DNA of 64,000 nt from a virus. Numbering within the stretch: position 1 is the stretch's first letter; each line of letters begins with the position of its first letter. The translations under genes were made by a program, and so were the position numbers. Shown one piece after another: positions 2,505 to 64,000 of the stretch. Below the pieces are notes generated by a model. The model was not told the origin of the DNA, did not search any database, and saw only the letters and a list, made by a program, of their open reading frames with translations. The DNA is taken from UHGV virus genome UHGV-0141439; one strand, written 5' to 3'.

Positions 2505-3481
2505 TTGTTCGGCACTCCTAATATCATTCGTGTTGTGTAGCCTACGCGGTCTTCAAAGTGCGCAACATTTTTTACTATCAGCTTGCGGGGCATTGATTCA
2601 TCAATGCGGTTTTCCTGGTCATAGCGGTATACGATAATCTCTATTACCATTCCCGGTTTTATATCCGGATTGCCTGCGACTTCTATATCCATTTTGGGGA
2701 CGAGAGACAGCTGCATATTGCGAAGAGTTTCCATATCAGAGTCGGATATATAACGCACTGGGAGTGAGCTATCGCCATATTCGACGTAGCCATCGGTCAT
2801 GGAATACCCAACAAAACGATATTGATTCTTTGCTGTTGTCGCATGTTCCTGTTGGAGTAGGCGCATTTTGGACAAAGTGTATTCTGCTTTAGGGTTATTC
2901 CCCTCGTAGGTAAATGATGGCGTTTGCTTCATCAGATCAGCCAGGGTGTAAAAGTTAAATTCCCCACGGCATACCCAACATAATGCACCTTTGTCTCGCG
3001 CTATCTGCGAGAGCATTTTTGACGGTTTGTCACCGGCATTCAGATGATATGTAACTGCGCGTTTTAGCACGCTGCTGGTAATTTTAAGCTTGCCGGAATA
3101 TGCCTTGAATATAGCGTCTGGTGTTTTGTTGGTATGTAAATTTGTGCGCGGGGAGGGGATCTTAAACCTGCGCACGTCTTCACTGACAGCAATAACGGTA
3201 ACAACATCACCAGCCAGCATTGCAGACGTAACAAAGAAGTCTGTTTTAAAAGTGCCTGCATTACCGTTTGGATCGCCCATTTCAGCCACCAGCGATGCAC
3301 CGTATTTGGCTTTCCAGTCATCAATTACAGTGCCGGTAGCGTCATGAATTTCCAGTTTTAGCAAAGGGGCTTTGAGGCTGGTTTTTTCTACATATACTGC
3401 GGTAAAAATCCAGTCTCGTGGCACTTTGTTATCGTTAATGAGCACTGACTGTAGAAAATATTGTTGTAACTCCTGGGCCAC
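2501..3481 (-). CDS. Hypothetical protein, translationally coupled in a four-gene operon
   Basis: 326-aa ORF; start overlaps the upstream stop, stop overlaps the downstream start. Confidence 0.4.
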   Translation of the reverse strand: MAQELQQYFLQSVLINDNKVPRDWIFTAVYVEKTSLKAPLLKLEIHDATGTVIDDWKAKYGASLVAEMGDPNGNAGTFKTDFFVTSAMLAGDVVTVIAVSEDVRRFKIPSPRTNLHTNKTPDAIFKAYSGKLKITSSVLKRAVTYHLNAGDKPSKMLSQIARDKGALCWVCRGEFNFYTLADLMKQTPSFTYEGNNPKAEYTLSKMRLLQQEHATTAKNQYRFVGYSMTDGYVEYGDSSLPVRYISDSDMETLRNMQLSLVPKMDIEVAGNPDIKPGMVIEIIVYRYDQENRIDESMPRKLIVKNVAHFEDRVGYTTRMILGVPNK

Positions 3482-3484
3482 TTA

Positions 3485-4252
3485 TCACCCCATAGATATC
3501 GAGGTTTCGGTAATAATACGTTTTGCGTCCAACTCCCATGCTGTGATCACGTCTGCAATCACACTTATCGGCGCTTGTGTGGCATAAATACGCTCTTCTC
3601 CAATTGGTGCCGAAACATCCGTAAATCCGACTTCTTTGGCATCCTGTATCGAGCAAATCAGCGGGACCGGGACACGAACAAGGTGAGTGGTTGCTTCAAA
3701 TTGTGTACCTGTCATCAGGCGAAGCCGTGCGCCCAGCGAATTACACATCAGACTCATGGTCGCTTTATCAGTTGCCATTAACGTAACGTCATACGTCAGA
3801 ATGGCCTGGGTGTATTCCAGTTCTGCTAAAGGCATTCCGGTATCCGGTTCGCAAAAACTGGCTACTTTTTTGCGGTCAATCTGCTGATCATCGTTGATAT
3901 AATTGATATCCATAGTGCGTGAGATATTGACCAGGGGGAGAGCATCCCGGTTAATGTTCTGGTTTTCAGGTTTTCTCCCTTGCCCGGCATTTGCGCGACG
4001 AACTGCTTTAAGAAACTCGATCGCATTGTCGAAACGGGCCACATAGACACGCTCTGCTGGTGGACGATTCAGGAATGACGCAAAGCGTTTTTCTTCCGGC
4101 GCGGGGGCCACCAGTAAGATATCAGAAAAGATATTGCTGATTAGCGTAGCAAACGCGTTATCCACGTTTTCAAAGCCCGTGGTCTGGAATTTTCCTGTGC
4201 GTGAGGTTTGCCATTCACCTGTTCGCGCCAGGAGGGTTTTATTTGAAGTCAT
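3485..4252 (-). CDS. Hypothetical protein (operon member)
   Basis: 255-aa ORF; 4-nt overlap with the upstream gene. Confidence 0.4.
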   Translation of the reverse strand: MTSNKTLLARTGEWQTSRTGKFQTTGFENVDNAFATLISNIFSDILLVAPAPEEKRFASFLNRPPAERVYVARFDNAIEFLKAVRRANAGQGRKPENQNINRDALPLVNISRTMDINYINDDQQIDRKKVASFCEPDTGMPLAELEYTQAILTYDVTLMATDKATMSLMCNSLGARLRLMTGTQFEATTHLVRVPVPLICSIQDAKEVGFTDVSAPIGEERIYATQAPISVIADVITAWELDAKRIITETSISMG

Positions 4253-5970: not shown

Positions 5971-6171
5971 ATGAACATTAAACCTATCCGTACAGAACAA
6001 GATTATGAGGCCGCACTGCGTGCGGTCGAACCGATGTTCGATAACGAACCGGAAATGAATACTCCGGAAGGTGATTTCTTTGAGGTTATGAGTCTTCTCA
6101 TTGAGGAGTACGAGAAGAAACATTACCCAATTCAGCCACCATCACCTGTTGAATCTTTTAACTATCCATAA
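5971..6171 (+). pseudogene. Orphan N-terminal fragment of a YgjM/HigA-type antitoxin (no HTH domain)
   Basis: 66 aa (IRTEQDYEAALRAVEPMF...LIEEYEKKHYPI) resembles the N-terminal half of HigA-type antitoxins; the reading frame stops before any HTH and AT-rich DNA follows. Confidence 0.35.
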
Positions 6172-8798: not shown

Positions 8799-9452
8799 TC
8801 AAAGTATCACGGTATCTTCATCAACTTCTTTCCCAGTCAGTGTCTTTGACTGGGAGGTGCCTGCTTTAACTTTTTCATGCCCAATAATGGACAGGAACGA
8901 AGCGAGTATGCCTGTTTTTTGCTCTTTCTCGACTGTACCGGTCATCTGCTCTACGTAATCCGCACTGGCTACATTGTGGTATACGGTCGCGTAGCAACAC
9001 AGGATCATCAAAATATGCTCCGGCCTGATATCCTGCCAGTTCACCCGGTAGACTTCTTCTCCGTTACCGTTGTATTCGGTGTCAACGATGGAGTCAGGGA
9101 TTTCGAAAGCACCTTTGTTATTTTGCGGCAGGGATAATAGCTTCTGGAGTTTTAACTCTCTGTATCTTTCCATCCCGACGATGATTGCTGCTCTGCCATC
9201 GGCATGACGGGTCTTGAGAGTCACCTGGCTTGCTCCGGTGCCAGCGGAGATCGTTGGCGTAATTTCGTCTACCAGTACCTTAAATTTGCTTTTCCGCAGG
9301 GCTGCTATAGCTGGAGGAATTTTTTGCTTTTGCTCCAATGCTGACGCGGGAAGGGGTTTTACTTCGTTAATAATGAGAGCACCGTCTTTCAGTATTGCAG
9401 TGAGCATTTGAGGCTTGCTGGTGGTCAGGCTGAATATTGCGATCTTTTCCAT
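8799..9452 (-). CDS. Hypothetical protein
   Basis: Track ORF 8799-9494; best start is the ATG at 9452 (MEKIAIFSL...) after a GGAGGAAGG RBS. Confidence 0.5.
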   Translation of the reverse strand: MEKIAIFSLTTSKPQMLTAILKDGALIINEVKPLPASALEQKQKIPPAIAALRKSKFKVLVDEITPTISAGTGASQVTLKTRHADGRAAIIVGMERYRELKLQKLLSLPQNNKGAFEIPDSIVDTEYNGNGEEVYRVNWQDIRPEHILMILCCYATVYHNVASADYVEQMTGTVEKEQKTGILASFLSIIGHEKVKAGTSQSKTLTGKEVDEDTVIL

Positions 9453-33962: not shown

Positions 33963-34038
33963 TGGTGGCCCCTACCGGACTTGAACCGGTGACCGTGCGA
34001 TTATGAGTCGCCAGCTCTAACCACTGAGCTAAAGGGCC
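33963..34038 (-). tRNA. tRNA-Ile2/Met type, anticodon CAU
   Basis: Hand-folded 76-nt cloverleaf with encoded CCA; closely resembles E. coli ileX. Confidence 0.8.
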
Positions 34039-34208
34039 AGATTACTGTTAATTCCGCTTACGCTTTTTGCCAGAACCGCGTAAGGCTTTTGCCGCTTGCT
34101 CGATCCCATATGCAACCACCAGCAGAAATAAAAATGTCCAACCAGGGTTCTTATCGGCAAAGGCCCAAAAATCCATCACTTGCAGCTACCTTTTAAGACA
34201 AAACGCCA

Positions 34209-34223
34209 TTGCTGTTAGATTGC
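34209..34223. other. Hairpin CCTGG-TGCCT-CCAGG
   Basis: Second member of the covarying hairpin set. Confidence 0.4.
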
Positions 34224-34450
34224 GGTGCCTGGTGCCTCCAGGTGACGTTAACCAGTTAACAATTAACGCCGGGATGTTTGATTTAACCACTAAGGAGGAT
34301 TGTTTTAACTGTTCCGCGTGCGCTTAGCCGCATTCACCGCAATGGTAAGAGCACTTGGCTGGCTGGGCGGCGATGACGCCTGTACGCATTTGGTGATCCG
34401 GTTCTGCTTCCGGCATTCGCTTAATTAGCCAAATACTCTTAACGTTGCGC

Positions 34451-34537
34451 TGGCGGAGAGTAATGGAATCGAACCATCATCGCTTGCGCAATGGGACGGT
34501 TTTCAAGACCGCTTGAGCACCATGCTCCCTACTCTCC
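34451..34537 (-). tRNA. tRNA-Ser, anticodon UGA (class II, long variable arm), tentative
   Basis: 87 nt; GGAGAGT/ACTCTCC acceptor stem, loop CUUGAAA, GGTTCGATTCC T-arm, encoded CCA; D-arm spacing is atypical. Confidence 0.55.
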
Positions 34538-34682
34538 GGCCGTTGTGGTGGCCGGTACTGAATCTCCGGCATACGGTGCAGCCAATTAGGACTACGGACG
34601 ATCACCGCTCGCGAAAGGGAAGATTTGCGGCCGCATTTCCCTAACATCCAAGAAAGCTATCGCATCAGTCTGCGAATCCACC

Positions 34683-34774
34683 ACAACGTTGAGAACACTG
34701 GTTGTCACGCTGCAACGCAACATTTATTCGTAGATTGGGATATGACCCCGTTACGTCAGTGTTCTCAACGTTGT
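34683..34774. repeat. Perfect 18-bp inverted repeat ACAACGTTGAGAACACTG with 56-bp spacer
   Basis: Arms at 34683-34700 and 34757-34774. Confidence 0.6.
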
Positions 34775-35002
34775 AGTACCGGTTACGGTTCCGGCCAGGC
34801 CTCTTCCTCAACGGGGTATTCTCCATACGGACTACCGTTTATTGGTCGTTCCTGCGGTTTATGTTGTGAAGCCAGATGCTTATCTTCTGGTTGCTTCAAA
34901 GAGCTGCACTTCATCACAACGGTAAGGGTACTTCGTAGGGATTCGAACCCTCTGCCAAGCACGGCGATCTCCGACGTCGCAAAATACCCTTACCTGTTGT
35001 GT

Positions 35003-35078
35003 TGGTGCCGATTAACGGACTCGAACCGCTGACATCCTGCTTACAAGGCAGGCGCTCTACCAACTGAGCTAAACCGGC
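35003..35078 (-). tRNA. tRNA-Thr, anticodon UGU
   Basis: Canonical 76-nt cloverleaf, loop CUUGUAA, encoded CCA. Confidence 0.8.
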
Positions 35079-35080
35079 AT

Positions 35081-35157
35081 TGGCGATGGTGGGTGGATTC
35101 GAACCACCGACCGACAGCTTAGAAGGCTGCTGCTCTATCCTACTGAGCTACACCATC
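35081..35157 (-). tRNA. tRNA-Arg, anticodon UCU
   Basis: Canonical 77-nt cloverleaf, loop CUUCUAA, encoded CCA. Confidence 0.8.
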
Positions 35158-58776: not shown

Positions 58777-58852
58777 ACCCCTCCAGAAATAACATCTAAT
58801 GCGCCACTAACTTAGTCAGTTTGTTATTTCCTTACAGGACATCTTCTAGAAT

Positions 58853-58878
58853 CTCCCCCCTTAACATACAAGGGGGGA
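58853..58878. other. GC-rich hairpin CCCCCCTT-N7-AAGGGGGG between lydA and cin, overlapping the cin RBS
   Basis: Read directly. Confidence 0.5.
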
Positions 58879-58881
58879 CAT

Positions 58882-59442
58882 ATGCTTATTGGATACATTC
58901 GCGTATCAACTAATGACCAAAACACCGCTTTACAACGAAACGCCCTTGAAAGCGCAGGATGTGAGCTAATTTTTGAGGATAAGGCGAGCGGCAAAAAGGC
59001 TGAACGCCCAGGGTTAAAAAAGGTTCTGCGTATTCTTTCCAGAGGTGACACCCTGGTCGTATGGAAGTTAGATCGTCTTGGGCGCAGCATGCGTCACTTG
59101 GTTGTGCTGGTGGAAGAGCTGCGTGACAGAGGCATTAACTTCCGGAGTCTCACTGACTCCATCGACACCAGTACACCAATGGGGCGCTTTTTCTTTCACG
59201 TAATGGGGGCGCTGGCAGAAATGGAACGTGAGCTTATCATTGAACGTACACGCGCTGGACTTGATGCAGCTCGCGCAGAAGGTCGTATAGGTGGGCGTCG
59301 GCCTAAATACCAAGAAGAAACATGGCAGCAAATGCGGCGATTGCTGGAGAAGGGCATCCCTCGTAAGCAAGTTGCAATCATCTATGATGTGGCTGTTTCC
59401 ACGCTTTATAAGAAGTTTCCGGCATCATCATTTCAATCCTAA
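58882..59442 (+). CDS. cin: Serine DNA invertase (Cin/Gin/Hin family)
   Basis: 186 aa, near-collinear with Gin (MLIGY(I/V)RVSTNDQNT, DTLVVWKLDRLGRSM, SPMGRFFFHVMGALAEMERELIIERT). Confidence 0.9.
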   Translation: MLIGYIRVSTNDQNTALQRNALESAGCELIFEDKASGKKAERPGLKKVLRILSRGDTLVVWKLDRLGRSMRHLVVLVEELRDRGINFRSLTDSIDTSTPMGRFFFHVMGALAEMERELIIERTRAGLDAARAEGRIGGRRPKYQEETWQQMRRLLEKGIPRKQVAIIYDVAVSTLYKKFPASSFQS

Positions 59443-59458
59443 ACCTTGGTTTAAGAGA
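59433..59458. other. Left recombination site (gix/cix-like)
   Basis: AATCCTAAACCTTGGTTTAAGAGAA resembles the gix/hix consensus; directly after the cin stop. Confidence 0.55.
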
Positions 59459-59590
59459 ACTCGGTACCAGCGGTGAAAAGATCCCCCTGTTGAGTACGGC
59501 TAACACATGGAGTGCGCGCCAGACTTTCAACGGCGGGATCACCGGGGCGCTGACAGGGAACGCCGACACCGCGACGAAATTGAAAACAGC
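59443..59590. repeat. Left arm of a ~148-bp inverted repeat
   Basis: Matches the reverse complement of 63182-63329 with two mismatches. Confidence 0.85.
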
Positions 59591-60554
59591 TCGAACAATC
59601 AACGGGGTGGGATTTGATGGTTCTAAAGATATTACACTGACTCCTGAAAATCTTGGCTTGACGGATATCGTGTCTCAAGCTGGTAACGCCGTTCAGCGTT
59701 CCGGCGATAAAATGACCGGAGAACTGAAAATTGGTACGGTGAATGCGCTTCGGATATTTGATGAAGCATTCGGTCTTATTTTCCGTCGTTCAGAAGATTT
59801 TCTTCATTTCATTCCGACGGCTGAAGGACAAGGCGAAAACGGTGATATCGGCCCATTAAGGCCATTCGCTATAAATCTGAGAACAGGTGCTATATCTGTC
59901 AGCCACGGGGCCAAAATTGAAGGAGGTCTAGCTATTGGTGCTACTGATAACGCACTGGGTGAAAACTCCATTGTTCTGGGAGATAACGACACCGGATTTA
60001 GGCAAGATGGAGATGGTATTATTAGCTTCTATTCAAATGGTTCGCGCATCGGACATATTGATGGGTTAGGATTATATCTTTATAAAGATATTGAATCTAA
60101 TGGCAGCAATTTTAGATTAAAAAGTAATTACCGCCACCACATTACATTCGCCAACGAAGACGGAAGTATTCGTATGTTTTTGTGGAAAGATAACGGTGGT
60201 GATGGTGTTCATATTAATAACGGTTCAGATGGTGGTGGTGACTTCATCTTTAAAAGGGATGGCGGTTTCACTCTGGGAAGTGGTGCGCAAGTCGCGTCTA
60301 GTGGCGATATTTATGGTTCAGTGTGGGAAAACAACTGGTTAAGCACATGGCTGCATAATCATGTCGTTCGGGATATTCGTCTTGGCAGCATTGAACATAA
60401 AAACGTATGGCGCGACTACGGCTTTGGCGATGCGTCAGGTTATGTTTTAACAGCCGCAATTAACAGCAATGCGGATGATATTGTCGACACTGTTGCCAGA
60501 AGGCCAATTCAGAAATTGATTGGGGGAATATGGTACAACGTGGGGAGTGTTTAA
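59490..60554 (+). CDS. Alternative tail-fibre C-terminal segment (Sv'), expressed only after inversion
   Basis: Its N-terminus [36 protein letters not shown] is the same as the segment encoded across the right repeat of the S gene. Confidence 0.7.
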
Positions 60555-60555
60555 G

Positions 60556-61083
60556 ATGATGCACCTGAAAAATATTAAGGCCGGGAATCCGAAAACACCG
60601 GAACAATACCAGCTAACTAAAAAAGCGGGCGTGGTATGGCTCTTTTGCGAAGATGGCAAGAACTGGTATGAGGAACAAAAGAATTTTCAGCCAGACACCA
60701 TAAAAATTGCTTACGATGAGAACAACATCATCGTTGCTGTCAGTAAAGACGTTTCAACTATTAATCCTGAAGGGCTAAGCATAGTTGAAGTTCCTGATAT
60801 TACGGCAAATCGTCGCGCAGACAATAACGGAAAATGGATGTTTCTGGATGGTAAAGTAGTAAAGAGGGAATATACAGAACAGGAACTGCAACAACAGGCC
60901 GAATCACAAAAGGCCGCGTTACTTTCCGAAGCAGAAAGCGTTATTCAGCCACTGGAACGCGCCGTCAGGCTGAATATGGCGACGGATGAGGAACGCGCAC
61001 GACTGGAGTCATGGGAACGCTACAGTGTTCTGGTCAGCCGTGTGGATACGGCAAATCCTGAATGGCCACAAAAGCCTGAATAA
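60556..61083 (+). CDS. Tail-fibre assembly protein, alternative copy (U')
   Basis: [45 protein letters not shown] is paralogous to 61112-61645. Confidence 0.75.
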
Positions 61084-61111
61084 AAATTAAGGCCCGATAT
61101 CGGGCCTTGTC

Positions 61112-61645
61112 TCATTCAGGTTGTTCGGGAAACGTTACTGGCAGGCAGGAGGTGTCTGTGGATTCGACTTTCTGCGCATAGAGCATCCACTCTGTTAATT
61201 TTTGTTTATTCTCGTCGGAAATGATACCCAGCCGTAGCTGTGAGTCCCATAGCTGTGTTTTATCCCTGACGAGCTGTAGCAGGCTTTGCTTTTCATTTTC
61301 CGCTTGTTGCCTCTGCTCTTCCTCGGTATAAGTTCGCTTTATCACTACGCCATCTTTGAACATCCATTTACCCGAAATATCAGCCCGGCGATTTGCTGTA
61401 ATGTCAGCAACCTCAACCACACTTAAACCTTCTGGATTTATTGTAGATACGTCTTTATTTATAGCCACAATAATTCCATCTGATGTGTAAGCAATTTTTA
61501 TAGTGTCATCCTGGAAGTTCTTTTGTTCCTCATACCAGTTTTTACCGTCTTCAGAATACAACCAGACAACACCAAATTGTCGCGTCAATTCATATTGTTC
61601 AACAGTTTTTGGATTACCTGATCTGATGTTTTTTAAGTGCTGCAT
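61112..61645 (-). CDS. Tail-fibre assembly protein (U)
   Basis: 177 aa, [45 protein letters not shown]; follows the S gene. Confidence 0.8.
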
Positions 61646-61647
61646 AA

Positions 61648-64000
61648 TTAAATACTTCCCGCGTTATACCAAGTGCCATTGATACAATACTGCACTGGCC
61701 TTGCTTGAGTTGTATCAATAAGTTCGTCCCCATTTGAGTTGATTGAGGCAGTAACAACATAACCAGATTTATCACCCCAACCAGGGCCATTCCATGTTTG
61801 CACTGACGATTTTGTACCTAATCGAATACCTGTAATAAATCGTGAATTGCATTCTGCTTTGGTATATGCCCCAACATCTCCCGCAGATGGTTTACGTGTT
61901 GTAGTGTAAAATTCTGACCAGTCGGCTTCAAAACCATAATCGTCACGCGCTGAACGATAAAAGATACCGCCGTTCGTATAATTCACGCGGAACTGTACAG
62001 CAGGGCAACTCCCCACATTCATATTGAAGTGGAGGATTAATGTCGTTGCACCACTGATATCTGCATCATAAACACCGCTATTCCAGTTCCAGCCAACAGC
62101 TTTATCATTTGCAACCCTGCTTCCTGTTTGCCCTAAAGCGAATGCAGGCTGCTGGTTTTTCGTGTTGTAGTCTCGTCGCCAGCCAGGAGCATAAGCATCA
62201 CCATGATTAATATAAGTGAATTGAGCGTTAGTGGTGCCGCCTCCGCTGGAAGTGCTCGGTGTGGTTATACGAATGGTCATTGCGCCTTTATTGCCCATAA
62301 CTTCAATAACGCAACCCGCAAGGTGAATAAGTCCACATCCGGTGTCAGTAATAATTTTATTATTGCCGTATGACCATGAGCATTTACACATCCAGTATGG
62401 ATGATTGAAGGCCCACTGAGATTCCAGCCATTCAATAAATTGCGCCGTCGTCCAGTTTCCTGCACCTGTGCTAATAGAGCCATGAAAAGAGCGGCAAGCA
62501 CCTATTGTTTGCGTAAATTTATCTTTGTTTGGAATATCTGCGCCGTTCTGGTTTTTCTGTAATGCTCCTGCGGCTAATTCTACAGTTTGCTCAAGATTTA
62601 AATCTGCCGCCGTTAGCTCAATATTTTTAGAACCATCAAACGACACCCCATTTATAGTTCGAGCGGTTTGTAACTTGGTCGCTGTCGCTGCATTACCTGT
62701 TGTATTCTGATTGCCAGTGGCATTCACACCAGGAATGGAGTCCCTTGATGTATAGACCTGCGCCCACGCTGACCATTCCGAACCTACGGTATCTCTTCGT
62801 GAGCGAATGAAAACTGGCGCATGTGCACCGCTCGTACCACTCCAGCCAATAAGCAACTCTCCCTCACCAGAAGCACTCGCACCTTTCATGTGCAATACGT
62901 TGCCATACATGGTCGGGTAGCTATTGTTGTACGCCTCATACATTTGAATACCAGCAGTACCCTGAGTAGAGCCACTTAACGCCGTTACGGGCCCGCGTGA
63001 TACCAATGTATTAATGTTGATATCGCCTGAGCCATCAAACTTAACACCATTGATGTTTCTCGCCGTCGCAAGTTTTGTCGCGGTAGCAGCATTCCCCGTG
63101 GTGTTCTGGTTACCAGTTGTATTTACACCTGGAAGATTGATATTGGCCGAGCCATCAAATGCCACACCGCCAATAGTGCGTGCTGTTTTCAATTTCGTCG
63201 CGGTGTCGGCATTCCCTGTCAGCGCCCCGGTGATCCCGCCGTTGAAAGTCTGGCGTGCACTCCATGTGTTAGCCGTACTCAACAGGGGGATCTTTTCACC
63301 GCTGGTACCGAGTTCTCTTAAACCAAGGTATTGGATAACAGCAAGAACGCTTGTTTTGGCCAGAATATCGCGACCGACTGACGTTAAGTCAGTCTGAGAA
63401 ACAGTGTCTGTACCGGTAAAGTACGGCAATTTATTTGCGCCTGTCGCAAGACCAGCAAGCGCGGTTAAAGTTGCATCAAGTGGCTGTTTCCCTGCCAGCG
63501 CATTTGTCATTGTTGTCGCAAAGTTCGGGTCATTGCCCAGTGCTGCTGCAAGCTCATTCAGGGTATCAAGAGCTTCTGGTGATGAACCAACCAATGCGGA
63601 TATGGCAGCTCTTACATAAGCGGTCGTAGCAATCTGCGTGTTATTCGTACCCTGTGCAGCGGTAGGCGCAGTAGGTATTCCCGTTAATGCAGGACTTGCC
63701 AAAGGCGCTTTGAGAGCTAGGACATTGTTGATAGTTGTGCTGAAATTCGGGTCGTTATTGATCGCAGCCGCTATTTCTTTCAGCGTATCCAGTGTGCCAG
63801 GTGCGCCGTTGATAAGTGCCGTTATAGCTGCCTTAACAAAGGCTGTATTTGCAATCTGCGTGCTATTTGTGCCTTGTGAGGCCGTAGGTGCTGTCGGCGT
63901 ACCTGTGAACGCCGGGCTTGCCAAAGGCGCTTTGAGAGCCAGGGAATTGTTGATAGTTGTGCTGAAATTCGGGTCGTTATTGATCGCAGCCGCTATTTCT
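61648..64000 (-). CDS. Tail-fibre protein S (constant N-terminal part plus currently expressed variable part); 5' end lies beyond the window
   Basis: The frame stays open past the track start (TTG at 63924) to the window edge; repeated PAFTG..PTAPTA.QGTN.TQIA motifs; crosses the right inverted repeat. Confidence 0.8.
63182..63329. repeat. Right arm of the inverted repeat
   Basis: Reverse complement of 59443-59590. Confidence 0.85.
63313..63338. other. Right recombination site (gix/cix-like)
   Basis: Reverse complement TTATCCAATACCTTGGTTTAAGAGAA, compared with gix TTATCCAAAACCTCGGTTTACAGGAA. Confidence 0.6.
63661..64000. repeat. Near-identical tandem repeat (~230-bp unit) in the 5' part of the S gene
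   Basis: 63661-63790 closely matches 63891-64000; encodes a repeated ~76-aa unit. Confidence 0.7.

Follow-up and report, generated by a model that had tools for sequence, protein, structure and literature searches.

Inversion of the C-segment by the Cin invertase has been textbook knowledge since the early 1980s, and Cin C-segments are already annotated in the phages P1, P7 and D6. The segment is inverted by Cin, varying the tail fibres and the host range (PMC6906374), and in P1 the host range differs between the S and S' fibres (bioRxiv 10.1101/2022.07.24.501295). Divergence among D6-like prophages affects S, U, U' and S', with cin and R being retained (PMC6799933). The Gin/G-segment system of phage Mu is the same kind of switch, and the P1-related plasmid p15B likewise has a Cin-family invertase and tail-fibre cassettes (P1 annotation notes; PMC6906374). 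Here, a region of this kind is described from the virus genome UHGV-0141439, of which a stretch of 64,000 nucleotides (nt), called the window below, was analysed. The region occupies positions 58,882 to 64,000 and is very probably the Cin/C-segment switch of host range in a P1-family plasmid prophage that resembles phage D6. It is a new allele combination of this thoroughly known system; the mechanism itself is not new.

The invertase gene cin lies directly beside the segment (Table 1). Its product carries the Pfam domains Resolvase (5e-51) and HTH_7 (3e-18), is 100% identical to the invertase of D6, 98% to Cin of P1, 96% to Cin of P7 and 75% to Gin of Mu, and matches the Gin crystal structure 3uj3 (E=4e-89). 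A stretch within cin agrees with the annotated enhancer of P1 at 68 of 72 nt, lies at the corresponding place in the gene, and is assigned, at the sequence level, to the Fis-dependent element of the P1 system.

Over the 34 nt that surround each end of the segment, the window agrees at every position (34/34) with cixL and cixR as annotated in P1 (AF234172) and P7 (AF503408). The crossover positions were transferred from the P1 and P7 annotations, which put strand exchange at the central TT, and these positions give an invertible segment of 3,879 base pairs (bp; 59447-63325). The central TT reads outward-to-inward at both ends, the two 26-bp sites being in inverted orientation, and, as in P1, cin runs into the left site with its last 9 nt. 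Searched with up to three mismatches, a degenerate pattern derived from the two sites has only two matches in the 64 kb, both of them the cix sites, with 0.00 expected from dinucleotide shuffles. Compared with gix of Mu (TTATCCAAAACCTCGGTTTACAGGAA), the right site agrees at 21 and the left site at 19 of 26 positions (hand count), and the core dinucleotide is TT versus TC in gix.

The two sites stand at the outer ends of inverted repeats. A repeat search of the window finds arms of 188 nt that are 93% complementary and spaced by 3,525 nt. Base-by-base comparison resolves these into a near-perfect core of 148 bp (59443-59590), with just two mismatches (59516 and 59561), past which identity falls off over about 40 nt. 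A preliminary description of the window, made from its letters alone, had named a Cin-type invertase abutting a segment with limits at 59433 and 63338, near-perfect inverted repeats of 148 bp, and 26-bp end sites resembling gix or hix. The invertase assignment is borne out by the identities to P1 and D6, the repeat length is exact, and the limits fall within 1 nt of the outer edges of the 26-bp sites. For the sites themselves gix-like is right, but the full agreement with P1 and P7 goes further, and cix is their exact name.

Table 1. Coordinates of the features of the invertible region in the window (aa, amino acids).
Feature	Coordinates	Strand	Remarks
cin	58882-59442	+	Serine DNA invertase, 186 aa; Ser9 nucleophile in MLIGYIRVSTNDQ
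Putative recombinational enhancer	58900-58971		Inside the 5' part of cin; homologous to the 'enhancer of Cin-mediated C-segment inversion' of P1 (AF234172)
cixL crossover site	59434-59459	-	Sequence on the strand given, TTCTCTTAAACCAAGGTTTAGGATTG; exchange at the central TT, 59446/59447
Left arm of inverted repeat	59436-59623		Encodes the conserved N-terminal 60-odd residues common to both variable parts
Sv'	59447-60554	+	Silent alternative tail-fibre C-terminal part; open reading frame in frame with the cix site
U'	60556-61083	+	Assembly protein paired with Sv', 175 aa; Pfam Caudo_TAP, 1e-36
Palindrome	61089-61108		GC-rich, perfect, 20 nt, AAGGCCCGATATCGGGCCTT; between convergent U' and U, mid-segment
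U	61112-61645	-	Assembly protein paired with Sv, 177 aa; Pfam Caudo_TAP, 1e-35
Sv	61648-63325	-	Variable fibre C-terminal part now joined to Sc; continuous open reading frame with Sc
Right arm of inverted repeat	63149-63336		Partner of the left arm
cixR crossover site	63313-63338	+	Sequence on the strand given, TTCTCTTAAACCAAGGTATTGGATAA; exchange at 63325/63326
Sc	63326-64000	-	Constant N-terminal portion of S, the tail-fibre gene; frame open as far as the window edge

The genes run in the order cin, Sv', U', then the convergent U and Sv, and finally Sc, which is the order of the annotated C-segments of P1, P7 and D6. Sv' has no in-frame start upstream and its frame continues directly from the cix site. 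It is supported as a fibre part by a Pfam gp37_trimer match, by PHROG tail-fibre families and by the in-frame Sc-Sv' fusion that results from inversion in silico. Pfam gave no family for the Sc-Sv protein, which was instead examined with PHROGs and compared directly with P1 and Mu. Sc continues past the end of the window, so that S begins beyond 64000, where gene R and the late promoter are also located. At the nucleotide level Sc is 92-94% identical to Sc of P1 and P7 (93% for P1) and 100% identical to that of the Escherichia coli (E. coli) plasmid pLD93-1-90kb (NZ_CP047663.1). A sigma-70 promoter scan of the segment gives 3 sites versus 9.3 in shuffled sequences, which speaks neither for nor against internal promoters; late promoters of P1 do not follow the sigma-70-type consensus. 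Two minor features were also seen. The palindrome between U' and U is terminator-like, with a T-run on the - strand side only, and Sc contains tandem units at 63595-63778 and 63817-64000 (222-nt spacing, 82% identical), whose counterparts in Sc of P1 are annotated as 'repeated elements b1/b2'.

When 59447-63325 is inverted in silico, an uninterrupted in-frame Sc-Sv' fusion is obtained, 593 residues long counted from the window edge, and the amino acids at its junction are the same as in the present Sc-Sv fusion. Both arrangements are seen in plasmids. In pLD93-1-90kb the order is cin, Sv', U', U, Sv and Sc, the orientation of the window. In pL9-1 (NZ_CP142045.1; L004), which has the opposite orientation, it is the Sv'-U' cassette (100% nt identity) that is attached to Sc, with the Sv end towards cin; the alignment to the window stops being collinear at 59436 and 63336, where the repeat arms have their outer ends. 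The two junction types were counted with 754-nt probes against PLSDB. The window's cin-Sv' junction is present at full length in four plasmids, from E. coli, Salmonella and Escherichia albertii (99.7, 98.7, 98.7 and 95.8% identity; the best match is pLD93-1-90kb), while the predicted Sc-Sv' junction is present at full length in three plasmids (99.3, 98.3 and 96.0%; the best is NZ_CP114131.1) and in one more at 91.3%. Both junction types occur in related plasmids, and thus both orientations occur among close relatives. They are about equally common there, as expected for an active switch, which is indirect evidence for switching. The exchange of Sv-U for Sv'-U' put forward in the preliminary description is supported by both the in-frame fusion and the two junctions. 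Its two fibre-tip and assembly cassettes are also recovered, as convergent pairs of a C-terminal part and a Caudo_TAP protein with Sc outside the segment. Its labels Sv/U and Sv'/U', however, stand as positions and not as homology: the fibre in the expressed position is of the P1 Sv' and Mu S' type.

A separate observation concerns the IMG/VR contig L020, in which invertase-gene fragments are found at both segment ends (1-599 and 3466-4064). The fragments form a 599-nt inverted repeat of 97% identity that begins at the contig end. This could be an assembly path through a population of mixed orientation, or a real duplication.

Under the mechanism proposed here, Cin, which belongs to the Gin/Hin/Cin/Pin serine invertases, would bind the two inverted 26-bp cix sites 3.9 kb apart, assisted by the enhancer inside cin and by the host protein Fis, whose role is established in P1, Mu and Salmonella Hin. 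Strands would then be exchanged at the central TT, inverting 59447-63325. Gene S would be transcribed from a late promoter outside the segment, beyond the window end, so that Sc would be joined either to Sv followed by the chaperone U, as in the present orientation, or to Sv' followed by the chaperone U'. A population of lysogens would in this way yield two kinds of virion with different receptor specificity. Fis dependence, the switching frequency, late-promoter control and the differing host ranges of the tips are inferred here from work on P1, Mu and Hin and from the P1 S/S' host-range experiments.

Several points weigh against an active Cin switch at this locus. The window is a single consensus sequence in one orientation and gives no direct view of this element switching; the plasmids of opposite orientation are relatives that are 96-99% identical at the junction, and not the same clone; and the Fis sites and promoter control are inferred only, with the late promoter and gene R outside the window. 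The single orientation would also fit a Cin-derived layout that no longer inverts, for instance with cin unexpressed or the enhancer defective, and from which only the Sc-Sv fibre is made. Truncated cin genes or degraded C-segments do occur in some P1-like plasmids (PMC6906374). However, the full-length cin found here is identical to the cin of D6, a viable phage, the cix sites on both sides match those of P1 exactly, 94% of the enhancer is conserved, the open reading frames of Sv' and U' are intact, and among near-identical relatives the two orientations are about equally frequent. A frozen relic is thus very unlikely.

The presence of a dedicated invertase with exact target sites and an enhancer also argues against the view that the segment inverts chiefly through general, RecA-dependent homologous recombination of the 148-188-bp repeats and not through site-specific exchange at cix. 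The 148 bp of near-identity are long enough for RecA-mediated exchange, and the repeat cores of pL9-1, identical to each other, suggest gene conversion between the arms; with these cores alike, repeat polymorphisms are not decisive between site-specific and homologous exchange. However, relatives of opposite orientation lose collinearity at the outer, cix end of the repeat, and the repeats are accounted for by the coding of the shared fibre segment. Mu inverts with a repeat of only about 34-41 bp, and repeat length is therefore not the driver. A mainly RecA-dependent route is considered extremely unlikely. As for a shufflon-like system, in which both the crossover sites and the fibre variants would number more than two, the model is Min of p15B, which has six crossover sites and shuffles several segments. 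Hints of such complexity are the extra copies of a collar motif in Sv (62630-62735 and 63029-63134), an inverted 81-nt match between 59553-59633 and 62620-62700, and the finding of the Sv'-U' cassette in another region with three gix-like sites (described below). The internal motif copies, however, are without cix sequence. Min-like multiple inversion was rejected on the count of sites, of which there are just two in the 64-kb window, as opposed to the multiple sites of Min, at up to three mismatches and in agreement with a looser core search; its probability is practically negligible. Inversion of a single segment by Cin between two cix sites is therefore retained as the very probable reading.

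Among the described systems, the P1 C-segment has the identical cix sites, the near-identical Cin and enhancer, the gene order and the cin-cixL overlap set out above, and its Sv' and U' are homologous to Sv and U of the window (81% and 84% aa identity). It differs in its longer inverted repeats (636 nt, versus 188 nt with 148 near-perfect here) and longer segment (4,256 versus 3,879 bp), in its Sv, which is unrelated to the cin-side tip of the window (25% aa identity), and in the presence of lydC, which the window, like D6, lacks between lydA and cin. With D6 (MF356679; also, for example, the D6-like Salmonella pYU39_89) the locus shares the identical invertase and a lydB-lydA-cin flank of 98.7% nt identity. 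The D6 record annotates cixL and cixR at homologous positions, and the D6 inverted repeat is of similar length (198 nt). Within the segment, however, D6 has only about 80% identity for U', U and Sv, and no counterpart of the Sv' tip. Repeat lengths across these systems are 41 nt in Mu, 198 in P7 and D6, 216 in pL9-1 and pLD93-1-90kb, and 636 in P1, and the 188 nt found here are ordinary for the group.

The Mu G-segment is a switch of the same kind. U, U' and S' of Mu are about 82% identical at the nucleotide level to U', U and the Sv tip of the window, and the invertases and sites are related (75% for Gin, 19-21 of 26 positions for gix). However, the gix core is TC and not TT, the Mu repeats are about 41 nt and not 188 nt, the backbone is different, and gin, which is separated from gix, is located across the segment from Sc. 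Membership in the Gin/G-segment type was rejected on the TT core, the partial gix match, the 188-nt repeats and the D6-like backbone.

The surroundings of the locus also point to D6. The 24.8 kb upstream (34000-58800) are 94.7% identical to phage D6 over 99% of their length, with homologues of D6 and P1 genes in D6 order (C1, pacAB, darB, the portal gene, darA, and the lysis genes lydB and lydA). On the grounds of this identity, the gene order and the lack of lydC, the window is assigned to a D6-like, P1-family plasmid prophage. The closest record in PLSDB and the complete E. coli genomes is pLD93-1-90kb (95.1% overall); no exact copy of the region was found in PLSDB or the complete E. coli genomes. 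The annotation of pLD93-1-90kb is generic only, 'recombinase family protein' and 'tail fiber protein'. Identity to this plasmid is 99-100% over 58800-61400 and 62700-64000, and between them lies a 1.3-kb patch (61400-62700) with patchy identity of 65-96% and a 120-nt indel near 62600-62700. The patch spans the receptor-binding tip of Sv and the N-terminal half of U. As divergence from pLD93-1-90kb is confined to it, the patch looks like a localised allele exchange, that is, a recent recombinational replacement of one fibre tip.

The two cassettes differ in their relationships. Sv, in the expressed position, is 81% identical at the amino acid level to S' of Mu, as it is to Sv' of P1, and U is 84-85% identical to U' of P1 and Mu. 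The closest relatives of the Sv tip reach at most 91-92% aa identity in IMG/VR, and those of the U-Sv arm at most 87.9% nt identity in PLSDB. U' is 84% identical to U of P1 and Mu, and 100% to the pLD93-1-90kb protein. Sv', on the other hand, shares with P1, P7 and D6 only its first ~65 residues, which are encoded by the repeat. Against the tips of P1 and P7, its own tip reaches 25-31% identity, and the tip type is absent from P1, P7 and D6; the best match among sequenced phages is 44.6%, in Mu-like Yersinia phages, with about 30% to gpH of P2. Among GTDB representative genomes the Sv' tip gave two partial chromosomal matches only (70%, residues 23-142), which are uninformative. The Sv'-U' cassette is nevertheless 96-100% conserved across plasmid prophages of E. 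coli, Salmonella and E. albertii.

The cassette was also seen in the IMG/VR loci L014-L021 (95-99% nt identity), where it adjoins invertase genes that are about 70% nt identical to cin. One of these, L016, has gix-like sites (TTATCGAATACCTCGGTTTACAGGAA, TC core), with three site-containing repeats at 4005-4065, 5996-6051 and 8913-8973. Because of these neighbouring invertases and the gix-like sites of L016, the Sv'-U' cassette is taken to be common to Cin-type and other Gin/Pin-type, possibly multi-cassette, inversion regions. The differences among the tips fall within the mosaic evolution already known for tail-fibre tips, and call for no new mechanism.

It is possible, though rather doubtful, that the silent Sv' tip confers a receptor specificity uncharacterised for any P1-family phage. 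If it does, the cassette would be a mobile module for host range by which D6-like plasmid prophages can pass from one genus to another, and the 1.3-kb patch that sets the other tip apart from pLD93-1-90kb, an allele swap, would be a recent adaptation of host range. The practical value of the locus is modest. It provides a correct annotation for a D6-like plasmid prophage whose relatives are labelled generically, and documents one more combination of fibre-tip cassettes. Catalogues of tips aid in predicting the host range of transducing particles of the P1 family, or in engineering it, for instance to deliver antimicrobials (bioRxiv 10.1101/2022.07.24.501295; PMC10028697), and also help in understanding the spread of phage-plasmids bearing antibiotic resistance between Enterobacteriaceae.

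Within the fibre genes, extra diverged copies (71-78%) of a motif of about 100 nt are found at 62620-62735, 63029-63134 and 59553-59633. The motif encodes 'GN..TATKL.TAR.I.GV.FDGS' and also makes up the inner part of the inverted repeat. A stretch of about 450 bp between two of the copies is missing from pL9-1 and from the IMG/VR locus L008, suggesting gain or loss of modules by recombination at the motif.

Further upstream, a transfer RNA (tRNA) cluster is present on the - strand at 33963-35157, with Met(cat), Ser(tga), Thr(tgt) and Arg(tct). At the homologous place in D6, ARAGORN finds Met, Ser, Thr and Asn(gtt), also on the - strand, so the fourth tRNA is Arg in the window versus Asn in D6. 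The D6 GenBank record annotates the Ser, Thr and Asn tRNAs on the + strand and omits Met. The spacing between the Met and Ser tRNAs is about 570 nt shorter in the window than in D6.

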